From: Armatimonadota bacterium | GTDB lineage: Bacteria; Armatimonadota; Zipacnadia; Zipacnadales; UBA5352 | Length of the DNA stretch: 13,965 nt | Direction of reading: 5' to 3' | NCBI GenBank assembly: GCA_034722055.1 | Contig: JAYENL010000045.1 | Coordinates: 1-13,965, forward strand | Shown: positions 1 through 6,000 of the stretch, piece after piece | How the letters are laid out: the number at the start of each line of letters is the position of its first letter | Numbering within the stretch: position 1 is the first letter of the stretch | Made by a program: the position numbers

Positions 1-3000
1 GAACGAAAAACGGCCGGGATGGAACCTGCCGCCTGCGCAACACGACCGCGCAGGCGGCACCCTGGAGTTCGGATAGCGAACTCTTAAGAGAAGCCTACTG
101 GCTTCTCCATCGCTACGCTCGGGCGGCCCCTCCCCATACGACACACCACACGGGTGAGCGCTTGCTCGAGTCCATCGCAGGCCTTCCGCAAGATGCGGGT
201 AATGCTGCAGAGCCGTACATCTGGGCGACTGCAGCGGCGCTGCTGATCTGATCCCGACGAAGGGAATCCCAGCCCCGCGGTGAATACTCGCCCACGCAGT
301 GAAGAGTCGCCTGCGGCCCAGATTTCGATACAGGAGTGGAGCGAGATGGCAAACACGGTCCGGTGCGCCCTCATCGGCGCCGGGGGGATGGCCAACAGCG
401 TGCACTACCCGTCGCTGGCGGAGATGGATGACGTTGAGCTGGTGGGGCTGTGCGACCTCATCGAGGACAAGTGCTACACCACCGCCGAGAAGTTCGAGAT
501 CGACTACACCAGCACCGACTACAAACAGATGATCGAGGACCTCGATCCGGACGCGGTGTGGGTGCTCATGCCGCCACACCACCTCTTCGACATCGTTGTG
601 CACTGCCTGAATGAGGGGCTGAACGTCTTCATCGAGAAGCCCCCGGCGATCACCAGCTATCAGGTGCGCTCCTTCGCGCAGCTCGCGGACGAGAACAACT
701 GCCTGACGATGACCGCCTTCAACCGCCGCTTCATTCCGGTGCTGCAGCAGTGCCGGGAGAAGGTCCTGGAGCGCGGGAACATGATCCAGGCGGTAAGCAC
801 CTTCTACAAGTGGCACACCGCGGGGCCCTACTACAATGGCGCCGTCGATATCCTCTACTGCGACGCCATCCACGCCGTGGATACGCTGCGCTGGATGGGC
901 GGGGACGTGGAGCAGGTTGCCAGCGACATCAAGTTCAACGGGCGCGAGTTCGAGACGAGCTGGATCGCCATCACCCGCCATACCTCCGGCTGCACCGGGG
1001 TGCTGCTGACGAACTGGCAGACGGGCGGGCGGGTGCACCAGTTCGAGATGCACGCCAGGGGCATCTCGGCCTTCTGCAATCCCGAGGAGGACGGCGGGGC
1101 GATCATCCACGCCGACGGGGAGCTCAGCGCCGAGGTCATCGGCACCACGGAGGCCGCCGAGAGCGAGGAGCGGCGTCACTTCTACGGCTTCTACGGCGAG
1201 AATCGGCACTTCATCGACTGCATCAAGGAGAACGTGGAGCCGGAGACGTGCTTCGCCGACGCCACGAAGACCATGGAGCTGGGTGACCGCATCTACGGGA
1301 ACCAGTTCTGAGGGACGCGCAGCGCCGCCATGTCGAGGGCGCCCGTCTCCCAGCATTGTGGAGTGATTTGAGAGGGGCAAACGGCGGTAGGCTGGAAGCC
1401 TGCCCCACGGATGTTGTCCGGGGGGACCGAGCGACAGAACGGCAAACGCCGTGCGGGGGGCACCCGCACTGGGGACGACATGCGGCAACGGCGCACGCAC
1501 AGGAGTGTGCGTGCCACGGGACGGCCAATGACGACGACGACTGGCGCGGCACGGGTCCGCGCCCTACAGGGAGCAACGGCGAACGGCAACGGCAGGCGGG
1601 CTGGGCAGCCCGCCGCTCCGTACGACACCACGGTAGCCGCGGGCGACAACGGCGCTCACTCGGCCTCGAAGACGTGCTCCGGGATCAGGGACAGCACCGG
1701 TGGAAGCTGATCGCCCAGCGACAGATGAACGTCCTCGAGGGTGGTGCCGATGTCCGCCCGCGCGATCTCCAGCGCCCAGGTCTCGCCCGCGTGGTCCCCG
1801 GCCTGGACCTCCACCGTTACGCGCTCCTCCGTGGGCGTGGTCTGGCCCGTCGCGGCCATCTCGCCCGCCGGGTCGTGGACGTTCAGCCGGGCCGTCTCCG
1901 CGCCGAAGCCGCGCGCGGTGATGGCGAACTGCTCCGCATCCTCCGGGACAGCGAAGTAGAGCCGCTGCGCGGCGCCGATGATCCCCAGGCCGCGGCCGGC
2001 ATAGATACCCACCGGTACGTTCGCACTCGTGATCGCGTAGGACGATGACCCGGCCACGACGTTGAGGGCGTAGATGCCGCCCTCCTGGGGAGTGAAGCTG
2101 ATGGTGCCGTCGCCGAAGGGGACCGTGCCCTCCGCGATCTGCTCCCAGGTGAGATCATGGGCGCTCCACTCCAGGTCGGCCTCGGCGTCGCCCACGCGGC
2201 CGATTGTCACGCCCAGCTCCGCCGGCTCGCCGGCCGCGGCGTTAACCAGCAGCAGGTTCCGACGCCGCAGCTTCACGAGGGGCAGCTCCACCGTCTCGCC
2301 GGTCGGCTCAGGAGCACTCAGCCCCGCCTCGCCGGTGCCGATGCCGCCGAAGGCCCACGGATCGGGCGTCTCGCGCGCCTCCTGCCAGCGCTGCAGCTCC
2401 CCGGCCGCGATGGCGTCATTGGCCCACGTGAACCACATCCAGTAGTTCGGATGATCCTCCTGGTACTCGGGGCCCTCGTAGAAGATCCAGTAGCCGTCGG
2501 TGATGGCGCTGATCATCACCGCGTTCTTCCCGCAGTACTCGGGATCGGCGCCGCGCACCACCGGATCGATGCCGCCGGTGTAGTAGTGGGGCAGGCCGAT
2601 CTCGGCCACGCCCTGCATCCGCTCGGCGAGCAGCCGCCTGCCCTGCTGCAGCGCCCCCGACTGGGGCAGGAAGCTGGTGCGGCGGCCGTAGGTCACCGCG
2701 TCGGCGAAGATCAGCGGCGCCTCCTCGGAGGTCCACTCCGGGAAGGCCGCCTCACGCATGAATCGCGTGCCCGGCGCGGGATACATGCAGAACTGAAACC
2801 CGGGGTCGTGCTCGTCCACGGCCTCGCGCAGGGTCCGGCAGCGCTGGCGCCAGTGGTCGAGCTGCCAGGCCTCGAACTGGTCGTGAAGGCCCTGATTCTG
2901 CAGCCACTGGTAGCGCTCGGCCGGCTCGAGCTGGGGGATCTCCACGCCCTGGGCTTCGGCGAACATGTCGAGGGTCATCTGGTCGTAGGAGAGGTCGTAG

Positions 3001-6000
3001 ACGCTCCCGGACATTCGCTGTCCCTTGGCGTAGTTCTCGTAGTCGAGGAAGACGCCCAGCAGGTGCGGATTGTCGGCGCTGATGCGGGCGTACTCGGTGA
3101 TGTAGCGGGTGGTCCACTCCCAGAACTCGTCAGAGTTGGGGCTCCACAGGGGCTGCTCGCCACCGTTGCGCCATACGAGCATCCTCCCCTGCGCCTCGTC
3201 AGGGTTCTGCACGCCCAGCGTGCCGCGCATCCACACCAGGTGGAAGATGCCGTACTTCTCACACCACTGCGTCACCTGGCGGACGGCATCGAGGTCGCTG
3301 TAGCCCCGGCGCGGGGAGTAGACGTTGAAGCCCGCGTCAGCGGCCTCCTTCACCATCCACTCCTCGGTAGTCCAGCCGGCCTCCGGCTGCATGACCTTGT
3401 CCACGACGATGCGGAACTTGACGTCCCGCCCGAGCATGTCACGCGTCAGCTCCTGGGCTGAGCAGTGCGCGAGCATCCCGGCGGTCAGTGCAGCTACCAC
3501 GATCAGCGTCAGATGTCTCATGTCGTGCGCCTCCTCCAGCGGAATCCCCTGAGTTGCTTCTTGCCGCCACTCGGACATCTCCCGCGTAGGTCGGGCTTCC
3601 AGCCCGACAACGACAAACGGCGTGCGGAGGAGGGCCTCCGCACCACGGAACGGCACGCAGCGCACGGGCCGAGACCGCAGGTCTCCAGTGTCCATGCCAC
3701 GGGATTTCGGCAGGGCGCCCGCCTCACAGCTCTGACAGCGCGGTCAGCGCCTGCAGGATCTGGATCCGCACCCGGTCCTGGACCGCCCGGTCCTTGGGCT
3801 CATCCCACGTGTAGCTGGGCTCGACGTCCATGGCCATCACGCGCCCGACGGCGGTATCCAGCAGCTTCCGCGCCGCAGTCAGCCGGGCGTCCTGGACCCC
3901 GCGGCCCTCAAGCTCCTCCACGCGAGACCGCAGCATGGTGAGGTACTCGTAGTCCTCAACGCCCTCCCGGATGGCCTCCATGTACTTGGCCGGGGTGTTG
4001 GAGGTGTCGTCGATGTAGGTCGGGCAGTAGGGCCCGTTGCCCTGCGCGGTATACTCGTTCCAGCACGAGACCCTGCCATTGTCGGTGAAGCACCAGAAGC
4101 ACGAGCCCATGGCGCCGATGCCGAAGGCATGCCACTCTTGCATCAGGTAGTAGCTGAAGGGGTCGAAGCTGCGGGCGGGGCCGTCGGCACTGTAGAACCA
4201 GAGGTCCTTCCCGGCCGCCTGCTGCTCGGCCAGCAGCTCCGTGTACCACTGTCCTCTGGTCATGTACTGCCTGCGGTAGGGGCAGAGGACGTCCACACTC
4301 TCGAACATCGCGACCACGTGCTCGTCGAGGCTGGGCGGCTGCGGGTCCTCCCAGGTCACGATCTCCGGCGCCGCGGCCTCGATGGCCTTCGCCCAGCCCA
4401 CGATGGTCTCGTACTGCTCGCGATCGTGCGGCTCGTCAACCAGCAGCAGGCCGAGCTGGTTGCCGTCCAGCCCAAGCTCCCGCATGTGGTCGGCCCAGAA
4501 GCGCGCCCAGGCGCCGACCTTGCGGTTGAAGACCTCAGTGCCCATCCGGGAGCCGTCGAAGCTGTCGCCCACCGCCATGAAGACCATGTACATCCTCGCG
4601 TCCGGCCACGCCGCCTGCCACTCGTCGAACTGCCAGGTCTGTGGCCTGGCGACCATGTTGCCCTCCGCGTCGTACTCTCCCGGCTGCAGCACCCCGCGAG
4701 TCGCCCACGGGGCGTTCACGTAGTGCGACTGCAGGTGGTCGATGATCTCCGCACGGTTCTGCGGGGTGAGGCCGTAGGCCGTGGCATTGGTGTAGCTCCA
4801 GCCGCCCACCAGCAGCGTGGTCTGATCCGGGAAGCGCAGCGGGTAGATGCGCACGCGGATGGGGACGCTTCCCGAGAAGCCGGTGGCGGCGCTGAGCCGG
4901 ATGCTGCCGGCGTAGGTGCCGGGCTCCAGGTCAGGGCGGTTGAGGGCGATCCACACCTGCCGGACCATGCCCGCCGGGACGGTCACCAGGTAGTCCTCGC
5001 CCACCCGGTCGGCCTCCGGGAGCGCCGCCGCCACCGCGGTGAACCAGCGGGTGCCGACGTGAAGCACCTCGTGCACTGAGATCCAGTCGGGATTCGGGCC
5101 GCCGGGCAGGCCCGTGATGCGCAGGCGCAGGTCGCGGTCGGAGGCGTTGGTGATGTTGAAGACGTCCGCCCGATACTCGTTCGCCATCATGTGAAGCTCG
5201 ACGGCCGCGGCCGCTGCGTCCGGCCCAGGCTCGGCGGAGGGTGCCAGCGGGTCCCAGCGATGCTGATCCCACAGTCGGATCTGGGGCTTGCCCTGTGCGC
5301 GCCACACGTCGGCCTGAAGCCCGAAGATGCGCCGCTCCAGATCCGTCATGGGCAGGATGGCCACGAAGTCCTCCATCGGGATCGGCTCCATCTCGTCGAT
5401 CTCCTCCGCGAGCTGCATGGCCCGAACCTCGAAGGGCTGCCGCCGGGCCAGCGGCAGGCGGCGGATGTCGTCGCCGATGGGGTCGAGGTCGCACCGGAAC
5501 TGATCCTGGATCAGGCCCGTGATGCGCACCGTCTCCATGTGCTGCTCGACCTCGGTGATGGGCGACCCGTCCAGCGGCTCGCTCAGCCACGCCTCGTCCC
5601 CCCGGAAGACCTGGATCTCGTCCACGAACAGGTAGTTGGGCGTGGGCTCCATGAAGAGCTTCACGAACCGCCCGTGGGTGTGCAGGTCGCCGGTCCAGAG
5701 GCGGCGCTCGGCATACTCCCCGAAGGGCGGCAGCTCCTCCCGCTGCGTGTGCAGCTCCACCAGATCGGCGACCTCGTACCATGTCTGCCCGTCCTCGCTC
5801 ACGAAGATCAGGATGCGGGCGGGCCAGTGCACGCCCGCGACGCCCGCAGCGGTGCCGAAGGACATCCCCCTGATGGGCCGATCCTGGCCGAGATCGATGG
5901 TGACGTACTTGGGCGAGACGCCGCTCCAGCCGACGGTGGTGGGGCGGGTCCAGAAGTGCCCCTCGGTGTACTCGCCATCGGTGAGTTGGACCGCGTCACC

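Follow-up and report, generated by a model that had tools for sequence, protein, structure and literature searches.

The window, the whole stretch of 13,965 nucleotides that was analysed, carries the gene P0001 on the reverse strand (1656..3521, stop codon 1656-1658), whose open reading frame translates into a protein of 621 aa. Residues 160, 162 and 233 of this protein are Asp, Glu and Glu, and P0001 is therefore the protein that the initial annotation had listed as g00557. Its ATG lies at 3521 with GGAGGAGG upstream, its orthologues are 617-628 aa long, and their alignments begin at residue 1. Residues 1-22 (MRHLTLIVVAALTAGMLAHCSA; 3456..3521, reverse strand) read like a signal peptide, and residues 2-18 form an isolated helix of reduced pLDDT in the AlphaFold2 model. 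P0001 is encoded by a real gene, and its product is predicted to be secreted.

Upstream of P0001 and on the same strand lies P0002 (3724..6699), a 991-aa open reading frame with a likely start at M31 (6609), which combines an F5/8-type-C-like domain with a divergent GH123-like catalytic domain containing a D755-E756 pair (4432-4437). F5_F8_type_C is the sole Pfam signal in this protein and stays below threshold; the family of its C-terminal 431 aa, compared in hhalign with 11 GH123_cat domains of this genome, matches these (99.6%, E 7.9e-25), with its VDEP aligned on the DEP of GH123_cat. P0002 adjoins orthologues of P0001 in 9 of 80 loci, confined to related Armatimonadota and one Kiritimatiellia locus. 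Among Armatimonadota genomes, 10 of the 11 with P0001 also carry P0002, versus 19 of the 140 without P0001, these genomes being related rather than independent. The GH123-like P0002 is a conserved partner gene of P0001. On the opposite side, a Gfo/Idh/MocA oxidoreductase is encoded on the forward strand (280..1311; PF01408, E 7e-20), orthologues of which (75-88% identity) lie near a P0001 orthologue in six loci.

As initially annotated, P0001 has no Pfam or NCBIfam family at E<=1. Nor does it have a sequence match in the PDB, where the best result of a profile search was a faint match of the GH5 enzyme CelC to strands 1-2 of P0001 (E 0.15). Its homologues form at least 523 clusters from Armatimonadota, Planctomycetota, Hydrogenedentota and others. 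Within this genome, the protein had been assigned to one family of 16 members (family 1), which we find to be a single-linkage composite. BLASTP at E<=1e-8 among 8647 ORFs yielded four matches for g00557 and seven for g00542 (contig C43), and a family HMM located the barrel domain in six ORFs at E<=1e-18 (on C45, C43, C306, C77, C11 and C106), which are the only barrel paralogues. Two other modules hold the composite together: the C-terminal beta-sandwich of g00557, common to proteins with other catalytic domains on C93, C116, C199, C73, C11 and C69, and the ThuA-like C-terminus of g00542, common to C173, C294, C163 and C96. The proteins on C163 and C294 are ordinary GHL10 proteins.

The AlphaFold2 model of P0001, built with 48 sequences (pLDDT 94.5, pTM 0.90), is better than the earlier one and reproduces its architecture, a (beta/alpha)8 barrel followed by C-terminal beta-sandwiches. 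The barrel (residues ~25-388; 2358..3449, reverse strand), delimited by the model, the VIA-align span 25-388 and the hhalign alignment to GHL10, comprises in the model the strands b1 (36-41), b2 (67-70), b3 (93-99), b4 (154-160), b5 (243-247), b6 (270-274), b7 (312-318) and b8 (343-348). The best 50 VIA-align matches to residues 25-388 are without exception carbohydrate-active barrels, nearly all of them glycoside hydrolases. Cwp19 (5oq2_A; Z 18.6, rmsd 4.1, 280 aligned) again leads this list, followed by GH35-like, GH29, GH42, GH5, GH164 and PgaB structures and reaching Z 14.6 at rank 50; because the list is so flat, the fold alone names no family. Among the named clusters of the ESM Atlas, GHL10, GH42 and DUF4015 are closest to P0001. 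The C-terminal module (residues ~410-621; 1659..2294, reverse strand), all-beta over residues 417-611 in the model, closes with a conserved LPPVLSLxPEHVF and has look-alikes in the ESM Atlas that are free-standing proteins of 241-246 aa (TM 0.77-0.82). It may serve as an accessory module, probably in binding.

A sequence-level connection emerged with GHL10 (Pfam PF02638, formerly DUF187). Comparison of 75 family 1 barrels with nine GHL10 domains in hhalign gave 98.4% and E 7.7e-15 over 186 columns, and the family 1 HMM also picked up two genuine GHL10 members encoded in the genome (E 6e-8 and 1.6e-6). The PF02638 HMM, for its part, produced 16 six-frame matches in the genome, none of the six barrel paralogues among these, and missed P0001 even at E<=1; a GHL10 match below threshold was seen in one of 64 distant family 1 members. 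D160 of P0001 aligns with the GHL10 Asp that is D195 in Cwp19, and Y278 with the Tyr that is Y297. On this profile evidence the family 1 barrel is a remote homologue of GHL10, and P0001 is very probably a glycosidase-type enzyme with kinship to that family. The initial claim of an undescribed glycoside hydrolase family thus stands as far as the glycosidase-type fold and the escape from Pfam and NCBIfam are concerned, and is weakened by the tie to GHL10; family 1 has turned out to be distantly related to an existing family, the outcome that was named initially as speaking against novelty. Set apart by comparison with Pfam, NCBIfam and the PDB, the P0001 family makes a reasonable candidate for classification as a new enzyme family, though not as a new kind of protein. 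The fuller description of P0001, as a secreted carbohydrate-active enzyme from a widespread, uncharacterised barrel family that forms a remote branch of GHL10, is one that we put forward with some reserve.

Residue conservation was counted in 74 diverse representatives spanning the family 1 barrel. The C-terminal end of strand 4 bears the motif D160-Y161-E162-N163-Y164 (3030..3044, reverse strand), with the family-wide consensus D-[FYW]-E-x-Y: D160 and E162 occur in 74/74 and Y164 in 73/74, and position 161 is F in 53, Y in 13 and W in 5. E233, reported initially as invariant together with these two acids, proved to be Glu in just 11 of the 74. After strand 6 follows Y278 (2688..2690, reverse strand; 72/74), our proposed active-site tyrosine, and strand 8 carries G343-Y-W345-I-F-Y-E349 (2475..2495, reverse strand), in which G343 and W345 are found in all 74. 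Strand 7 ends in G317 (2571..2573, reverse strand; G in 69, A in 5) and has no conserved acid among the 74 representatives, the adjacent D319 being Asp in 51. The polar and aromatic residues that end strands 4, 6 and 8 remain invariant down to 23% identity, and D160 and E162 are probably the catalytic residues of P0001. Position 349 holds an acid in 67 of the 74 (E in 57, D in 10), which could act as base or nucleophile in a mechanism other than the one on N-acetylhexosamine (HexNAc) polymers outlined below and counts against the latter.

Substrate-assisted catalysis employs a D-x-E in GH18, GH56 and GH25, an N-x-E in GH85 and a D-E pair in GH20 and GH123; the GH18 chitinases and endo-beta-N-acetylglucosaminidases carry it within a DxxDxDxE motif. 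In hhalign, GHL10 matched GH18 (91.4%, E 9e-7), as did family 1 combined with GHL10 (92.6%, E 4.4e-7), and the latter alignment brings D160 to the last Asp of the GH18 motif and E162 to its catalytic Glu, and Y278 coincides with the tyrosine in the 'M-x-Y-D' stretch of GH18. Compared directly, family 1 and GH18 reach 2.4% with the motif in a different register, and the D-x-E equivalence therefore rests on the two-step chain through GHL10 and a two-family MAFFT alignment. If the working residues are the pair D160 and E162 that ends strand 4, Y278 on strand 6 and W345 on strand 8, this GHL10-mediated alignment to the D-x-E and Tyr of GH18 suggests that P0001 would most likely cleave, with retention, a beta-linked, HexNAc-containing polymer. 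The nucleophile would then be the acetamido group of the substrate itself, oriented by D160, E162 would act as acid/base, and P0002 could trim the HexNAc ends released by P0001. Such a HexNAc substrate with substrate-assisted chemistry is possible, albeit somewhat doubtful. The substrates reported for two relatives, peptidoglycan for Cwp19 (PMC6016235) and deacetylated PNAG for PgaB (PMC5933820), are HexNAc polymers, and by analogy our guess for P0001 would be bacterial cell-wall or exopolysaccharide material.

Rather unlikely, in our estimate, is a classical two-carboxylate glycosidase on an acetamido-free glycan (galactan, mannan or fucan), in which the acid/base would be E162, with the role of nucleophile or base falling to E349 or D160. 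GH42, GH35, GH5, GH29 and GH164 score close to Cwp19 (Z 16.5-18.1), and both the prevalence of an acid at position 349 and the faint CelC match would fit; however, the strand-7 position that holds the nucleophile Glu in clan GH-A enzymes has no conserved acid in family 1, E349 gives way to Q, S or others in 7/74, and neither GH42 nor GH5 shows a significant profile link. A lytic transglycosylase or muramidase on peptidoglycan, with a single acid protonating the leaving group and the C6-OH or water as nucleophile, appears distinctly improbable, although Cwp19 is the best structural match and GHL10 the sole family linked by sequence profile. Cwp19 of Clostridioides difficile, described as the only studied GHL10 member, is a peptidoglycan lytic transglycosylase that yields 1,6-anhydro-muropeptides (PMC6016235), and it shares with P0001 a Gly that closes strand 7 (Gly328) and the missing nucleophile (PMC5765458). 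The invariant E162 and W345 are, however, missing from GHL10, which has I, L or M in this genome and Tyr197 in Cwp19 at Asp+2, and I, C, A or L in this genome on strand 8; family 1 also lacks the Arg at Asp+3 that is conserved in the genome's GHL10 proteins, no cell-wall-binding domains were found, and the partner is a GH123-like exo-enzyme rather than a peptidoglycan amidase or peptidase. That the barrel is no hydrolase at all, acting as a non-catalytic carbohydrate-binding domain or as another enzyme class, is very unlikely: TIM barrels serve many chemistries, the members have no known activity, and the related domain of PgaB was long considered a binding domain (PMC5933820), yet the invariance at the ends of strands 4, 6 and 8, the purely carbohydrate-active best 50 matches and fusions of distant members to CHB_HEX_C_1 (3/64) and Laminin_G_3 (2/64), accessory modules typical of glycosidases, argue for catalysis.

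Family 2, described together with family 1 and located outside the window, largely retained its initial description. Its seed (C31:1-1351, reverse strand) has 11 BLASTP matches, giving 12 members with ORFs of 267-1093 aa, the match covering just 37% of the longest; the model (pLDDT 90.8) shows a five-bladed beta-propeller, with GH43 8hcj_C as top Foldseek match (E 3e-11) and GH130 9fj8_A as top VIA match (Z 26.6, rmsd 3.1, 272 aligned). In the 10 members scanned, no catalytic Pfam family exceeded the cut-off, and the PF04041 HMM found nothing in the genome at E<=0.01. In the hhalign comparison with GH130 (81.3%, E 1.2e-5), the invariant D153 pairs with the 'DPR' Asp of that family. By structure and profile, GH130 is nearest to family 2, which differs from it in an additional C-terminal beta-sandwich; because 6n1b_A, a GalNAc deacetylase (Z 25.5), and BT_0996 5mt2_A (Z 24.9) come almost level with GH130, we assign no enzyme class to family 2. 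Family 2 does escape Pfam and NCBIfam, but its proximity to GH130 and the GH32 or GH43 labels that NCBI and UniRef already give to some homologues limit the claim that it is undescribed. Both families are multiplied in this genome, with six barrel paralogues and 12 members, respectively, and both are widespread beyond it, family 2 with at least 1021 homologue clusters.

Among known systems, clan GH-A (GH5, GH35, GH42 and GH164) resembles family 1 in its barrel (Z 16.5-17.3 over ~280-330 residues), but family 1 has neither the strand-4 Asn-Glu pair nor the strand-7 nucleophile Glu of this clan (Gly or Ala in 74/74), and because strand 7 carries no conserved acid it is not clan-GH-A-like in catalytic make-up; the initial description was of a clan-GH-A-like barrel. 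GH153, which is PgaB's and BpsB's C-terminal domain, also shares the barrel (6au1_B, Z 16.3; 4f9d_A, Z 15.0), with no link to P0001 at the sequence level in a PDB profile search that returned nothing below E 0.15. The authors of PMC5933820 propose for GH153 a catalytic Asp that closes strand 4, without a classical second carboxylate and without an equivalent of the catalytic Glu of GH20 and GH18, in contrast to the invariant E162 of family 1. With GH18, family 1 shares a similar strand-4 motif, G-V-F-L-D-[FYW]-E-x-Y resembling the D-G-[LIV]-D-[LIV]-D-x-E-x-P of nine GH18 sequences; the earlier Asp residues of DxxDxDxE are missing (Phe replaces the first Asp of DxDxE at position 158 in 52/74), GH18 does not appear among the best 50 structural matches of the barrel, and we claim no GH18 membership. 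GHL10 has in common with family 1 the (beta/alpha)8 barrel, the strand-4 G-V-x-hydrophobic-D, the Tyr after strand 6, the Gly ending strand 7 and a long insertion after strand 4, whereas the Cys triad of the genome's GHL10 members is retained in 10 of the 74 family 1 representatives. Despite this kinship, the predicted active-site signature of family 1 is its own.

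Judged against Pfam, NCBIfam and the PDB, the barrel proteins typified by P0001 (family 1) are good candidates to form a new CAZy family, one whose mechanism can be tested. P0001 is encoded at 1656-3521 (-), within an open reading frame that the ORF scan places at 1656-3695 (-). Read from the ATG at 3521, the gene yields 621 aa with a hydrophobic N-terminus (MRHLTLIVVAALTAGMLAHCSA), and the stretch GGAGGAGG stands immediately 5' of this ATG. The start is supported by the orthologues listed, which are mostly 617-630 aa long and in most cases align from near residue 1. Since residues 160, 162 and 233 are Asp, Glu and Glu, P0001 is the protein g00557 of the initial annotation. 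The gene proposed there is real and indeed without annotation: Pfam and NCBIfam give no family at E<=1, and a phmmer search of PDB sequences returned nothing at E<=10. No RNA family was found by an Rfam scan of the window, and a scan of 1300-3900 found neither a sigma-70-like promoter nor an intrinsic terminator.

The AlphaFold2 model of P0001, built on a 48-sequence alignment of its relatives (A1, down to 22% identity), has a pLDDT of 94.5 and a pTM of 0.90, and comprises an eight-stranded (beta/alpha)8 barrel at residues ~25-388 followed by beta-sandwich structure at 417-611. With VIA-align against 48,161 PDB representatives, the barrel fold proposed for g00557 was reproduced, again with Cwp19 of Clostridioides difficile on top (5oq2_A, Z 18.6, rmsd 4.1, 280 aligned). 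A beta-1,2-glucosyltransferase (7vkw_A, Z 18.1), GH29 (6tvk, Z 17.8), GH42 (5xb7) and GH35 (8faa, Z 17.3 each), GH5 (1rh9) and GH164 (6t5o, Z 16.7 each) and PgaB (6au1_B, Z 16.3) also matched. The list is so flat, with Z still 14.6 at rank 50, that the fold can be called a glycosidase barrel and nothing finer. Foldseek matches of the whole model had low TM (0.22-0.34) and were to generic glycosidases of the barrel-plus-sandwich type, and the nearest named clusters by structure in the ESM Atlas were GHL10, GH42 and DUF4015 (TM 0.41-0.46).

The 16 members first ascribed to family 1 shrink to six barrel proteins by the family HMM, the rest being linked through other domains. P0001 has four BLASTP matches at E<=1e-8, three of them via the barrel, while that on contig C93 of the same genome covers only 21% of its length. 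Its paralogue g00542 (C43:1331-3292, +), whose barrel is 62% identical to that of P0001, has seven: two via the barrel across 50% or more of their length, the one on C77 partly via the barrel, and those on C173, C294, C163 and C96 solely at the ThuA-like C-terminus; the C163 and C294 proteins belong to GHL10 (Pfam PF02638). A tblastn search with P0001 adds C116, C199, C73, C11 and C69, each solely within residues 418-621, and C93, C116 and C199 bear other catalytic domains as judged from their sequences. The proteins chained in this way total 4 + 6 + 4, near the 16 proposed. The "16-member family" is a chain of three domain families, and it illustrates how single-linkage BLAST families of multidomain secreted enzymes inflate size (16 versus 6 here).

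The beta-sandwich module of ~200 aa, encoded at 1659-2294 (-) and also on C93, C116, C199, C73, C11 and C69, ends in a conserved LPPxLSLxPE-like tail and is joined to three or more distinct catalytic scaffolds. In the shorter proteins of C73 and C69 it is free-standing, and stand-alone clusters of 241-246 aa are likewise present in the ESM Atlas. In g00542 a ThuA/GATase1-like domain takes the place of the C-terminal beta-sandwiches, and the same domain is found on GHL10 proteins of this genome; accessory domains have therefore been swapped between the two barrel families.

GHL10 is also where the kinship of the barrel lies. Among 8647 ORFs of the genome, the family-1 barrel HMM detects six clear barrels (C45, which carries P0001, C43, C306, C77, C11 and C106; E 3e-191 to 1e-18), and the next matches, C262 (E 6e-8) and C100 (E 1.6e-6), are true GHL10 proteins by Pfam (93.6 and 83.4 bits). 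An hhalign comparison of 75 family-1 barrels with nine GHL10 domains of the same genome gave 98.4% (E 7.7e-15), the 186 aligned columns running from strand 1 to strand 5. Conversely, when the genome was scanned in six frames, the PF02638 HMM had 16 matches, of which 12 exceeded the cut-off, but it missed all six family-1 genes, and it does not match P0001 at E<=1 (gathering score 27.9 bits). We also scanned with Pfam 64 of the 91 relatives of at least 340 aa, out of 150 listed; the other 27 were mostly the nearest relatives and fragments truncated at the N-terminus. These 64 distant relatives carry no above-cut-off catalytic family on the barrel, and one of them (P0215) matches GHL10 below threshold (21.4 bits against 27.9); alone against the PDB, P0215 finds a chance match only. 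Because HMM matches and hhalign join the two families, yet PF02638 misses the family-1 genes, family 1 is a remote sister of GHL10 outside the reach of the Pfam model, rather than the clan-GH-A-like orphan it had been taken for. The genome has also strongly multiplied GHL10 itself, as its 12 six-frame matches over cut-off attest (C262, C263, C100, C163, C294 and others). A full-text literature search on GHL10, PF02638 and DUF4015 retrieved no paper assigning such barrels to a numbered GH family, and one on new Planctomycetota GH families and Armatimonadota glycoside hydrolases retrieved nothing on family-1 proteins or on the propeller proteins of family 2.

Family 1 is widespread. At least 523 proteins (clusters at 90% identity) match P0001 at E<=1e-3 in a word-indexed search with 8000 candidates scored; the 120 matches listed are 51-72% identical over near full length, and those that are named are all "hypothetical protein". 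An exhaustive phmmer search of 1.84 billion representatives with residues 1-400 gave 227 matches at E<=1e-3, counted at 50% identity, of which 149 reach E<=1e-10 and 93 reach E<=1e-30. In the genome contig collection, 190 contig stretches encode a relative. Of the 80 loci kept, going by record title, 38 are from Armatimonadota (including Candidatus Zipacnadia), 20 from Planctomycetota and 9 from Hydrogenedentota; the others are labelled Nitrospiraceae (3), Lentisphaerae/Victivallales (2), Kiritimatiellota (2), Verrucomicrobia (1) and WS1 (1) or are unlabelled (4), and all loci come from metagenome-assembled genomes. Occurrence is patchy, with a relative at E<=1e-60 in 11 of 151 sampled Armatimonadota genomes, yet identity exceeds 50% across Armatimonadota, Planctomycetota, Hydrogenedentota and other phyla, which suggests that family 1 has been exchanged among them.

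The upstream neighbour, P0002, is a secreted protein of 991 aa encoded at 3724-6699 (-), on the same strand as P0001 and 202 bases away. Pfam offers only a sub-threshold F5/8-type-C match; the GH123_cat HMM (PF13320) does not match P0002, which is absent from the 23 six-frame matches of this HMM in the genome. The family of its C-terminal 431 aa nevertheless aligns by hhalign with 11 GH123_cat domains of the same genome (99.6%, E 7.9e-25), with V-D755-E756-P on the D-E-P of GH123, and this C-terminal domain is predicted to be a divergent GH123-like barrel with a D755-E756 pair. The 23 matches indicate that GH123 is expanded here too, with some members outside the HMM's reach. A P0002 relative adjoins the P0001 orthologue in 9 of the 80 loci, eight being full-length proteins from Armatimonadota/WS1 (45-67% identity) and one from Kiritimatiellia (26%). 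Among the 151 Armatimonadota genomes, a relative at E<=1e-60 occurs in 10 of 11 with P0001 and in 19 of 140 without it (Fisher's test, 1.5e-7, the genomes being related and not independent).

Other neighbours recur as well. Gfo/Idh/MocA oxidoreductases lie near the P0001 orthologue in eight of the 80 loci and an enolase-superfamily protein in seven. In 11 of the 80, an S1 sulfatase that carries an SGSH_C domain is encoded no more than 8 kb away, and five such genomes hold 50-104 sulfatase matches per 6-9.2 Mb, or 0.09-0.2 expected per 16 kb; given such sulfatase-rich genomes, we treat this link as chance. The window also encodes glmM (6899-8272; TIGR01455, 455.6 bits), an FKBP isomerase and, at 8291-12487 (-), a secreted PcRGLX-like protein of 1398 aa with three Pfam matches barely over cut-off, a GH127-like stretch, CBM6/35-like ends and ~20 paralogous places in the genome (tblastn). 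Two short ORFs at 13360-13740 and 13770-13964 (-) share a terminal DGHAKW motif, as is typical for prepilin-like proteins of the DUF1559 / H-X9-DG kind, and in six loci the P0001 orthologue has nearby a DUF1559 protein whose N-terminus bears a methylation motif.

Family 2, encoded outside the window, stands as the unannotated propeller family that had been proposed. Its seed (C31:1-1351, -) has 11 matches (E 3e-107 to 1e-15), among them C69:15935-17494 (-), which fits g00837 by position; Pfam finds no catalytic family above cut-off in the ten members scanned, one of which has BNR_2 and Laminin_G_3 in its other part. The HMMs of GH43, GH32N and GH130 match no family-2 gene, and that of GH130 (PF04041) matches nowhere in the genome at E<=0.01. 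Homologues number at least 1021, and a few are named GH32 (NCBI) or GH43 (UniRef), including one from cultured Polystyrenella longa. The model (32 sequences; pLDDT 90.8, pTM 0.90) retrieves GH43 8hcj_C first with Foldseek (3e-11), followed by GH130 entries, and with VIA-align GH130 9fj8_A (Z 26.6, rmsd 3.1, 272 aligned), the GalNAc deacetylase 6n1b_A (25.5) and BT_0996 5mt2_A (24.9), then GH130, GH43, GH159, GH62, GH32 and GH117. By hhalign, family 2 reaches 81.3% (E 1.2e-5) with 11 GH130 sequences, its invariant D153 aligning with the Asp in the DPR stretch of GH130, against 17.6% and 8.7% with single GH32 and GH43 sequences. GH130 is the nearest known family, and a non-glycosidase role, such as that of a deacetylase, is still conceivable. 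Two published proteins were considered in connection with family 2, by description rather than by sequence. A planctomycete beta-propeller group has been linked to AGW45552 (PMC5352709), which is a multidomain protein of dehydrogenase-like type and no five-bladed propeller (PMC5342196); the propeller beta-galactosidase Lac161_ORF10 is a DUF377/GH130-family member (PMC5342196).

The candidate active site of family 1 emerges from conservation in an alignment of 154 rows, of which the 74 covering residues 65 to 345 were used. D160, E162, P128, G343 and W345 are present in all 74, Y164 in 73, and Y278 and W134 in 72 each. Position 317 is Gly in 69 and Ala in the other five, 349 is Glu in 57 and Asp in 10, 161 is Phe in 53, Tyr in 13 and Trp in 5, and R99 on strand 3 is Arg in 57. 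The strand-4 end carries the signature D-[FYW]-E-x-Y, and the strand-7 end reads G/A-G/A-I/L with no conserved acid. Whereas D160 and E162 are as invariant as claimed, position 233 is Glu in only 11 of 74; E233 had been taken as invariant because the earlier alignment was shallow and held paralogues alone. The conserved residues are D160, E162, Y278 and W345, not E233, and invariants drawn from five paralogues can evidently mislead.

These residues can be placed on Cwp19, for which the structure paper names Asp195/Asp196/Tyr197 on strand 4, Arg132, a Tyr297 that follows strand 6, and Gly328 where the strand-7 Glu would be (PMC5765458). Three alignments agree on the mapping, which is one of sequences and not a superposition: phmmer of C262, a GHL10 protein, against 5oq2 (E 1.1e-5), hhalign and a joint MAFFT alignment. 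D160 falls on Asp195, Y278 on Tyr297 and the strand-7 Gly (G317, or Ala) on Gly328, so that these equivalents are kept; an Arg on strand 3 (R99) is present in 57 of 74. Asp196 and Tyr197 are instead replaced by F/Y/W (position 161) and the invariant E162. The GHL10 proteins of this genome differ as well: their strand 4 reads D-[YF]-[ILM]-R-[YST], and Trp345 is missing. Family 1 thus seems to bear its own signature on a frame common with GHL10. Ten of its 74 members, including C77 and C11, keep the C-x-C-x-x-C triad that follows strand 4 in the GHL10 proteins of this genome, and look like intermediates.

The barrel was also compared with three other known groups. GH153, PgaB's C-terminal domain, is a structural match (Z 16.3), although no PDB chain falls below E 0.15 with the profile of A1, whose best match is GH5 CelC over strands 1-2. 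In the PgaB study, D474 overlays the Asp of GH20 and GH18, but the partner Glu is missing (PMC5933820); family 1 has it. Membership of clan GH-A (GH5, GH35, GH42 and others) is rejected, since that clan has a strand-4 Asn followed by the acid/base Glu and a nucleophile Glu at the strand-7 end, whereas family 1 ends strand 4 in L-D-[FYW]-E and has no strand-7 Glu (D319 is Asp in only 51 of 74). Direct kinship to GH18 finds no support, with hhalign at 2.4% against nine GH18 sequences from Armatimonadota genomes.

Through GHL10, the comparison with GH18 reads differently. GHL10 against GH18 gives 91.4% (E 9.1e-7) and the joint family-1-plus-GHL10 alignment 92.6% (E 4.4e-7). Both place the shared Asp on the final Asp in GH18's DxDxE, E162 of family 1 or I/L/M of GHL10 on the catalytic Glu, and the strand-6 Tyr on the Tyr of the M-x-Y-D stretch. 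In the GHL10 alignment (91%), the strand-4 motif and the C-x-C-x-x-C triad of this genome's proteins align to GH18 with a hydrophobic residue at the catalytic Glu position, a replacement of possible relevance to the working of GHL10 enzymes. For family 1, the GHL10-mediated link (91-93%) supports "works like" GH18, not membership. A GH18 search of this 92.7%-complete genome found none; of 61 sampled genomes of the phylum, 16 have GH18 and 38 GH130 HMM matches, and neither was found in this genome.

The D-x-E residues of GH18, GH56 and GH25 and the N-x-E of GH85 serve substrate-assisted cleavage beside a 2-acetamido group, as do adjacent residue pairs in GH20, GH84 and GH123. D160, E162 and Y278 would correspondingly form a GH18-like Asp-x-Glu/Tyr machinery for substrate-assisted cleavage at a 2-acetamido sugar. 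We prefer this mechanism because of the GHL10-mediated alignment to GH18, the known substrate-assisted D-x-E families and the partner Glu that family 1 has and PgaB lacks, and we infer it through a two-step alignment chain of sequences, not coordinates. It is possible, though on balance doubtful, that family 1 founds a new CAZy GH family in which a GHL10-type barrel carries GH18-type Asp-x-Glu/Tyr machinery absent from canonical GHL10. Such an enzyme would attack exopolysaccharide or cell-wall material of bacteria as an endo-beta-N-acetylhexosaminidase, with a divergent GH123-like exo-enzyme as its partner.

Much of the capacity of Armatimonadota, Planctomycetota and Hydrogenedentota, all of them major degraders of complex glycans, lies in "hypothetical" proteins. 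Family 1 has a well-defined putative active site and no studied member. An activity would add a CAZy family and, besides Cwp19, a function for GHL10-like barrels, and it would test D-x-E as a mark of HexNAc-directed, substrate-assisted chemistry on a GHL10-like scaffold. Of the GH18 motif DxxDxDxE, family 1 keeps the final D-x-E only. If our tentative reading is true, GHL10, GH153 and GH18 would be joined in one evolutionary series.
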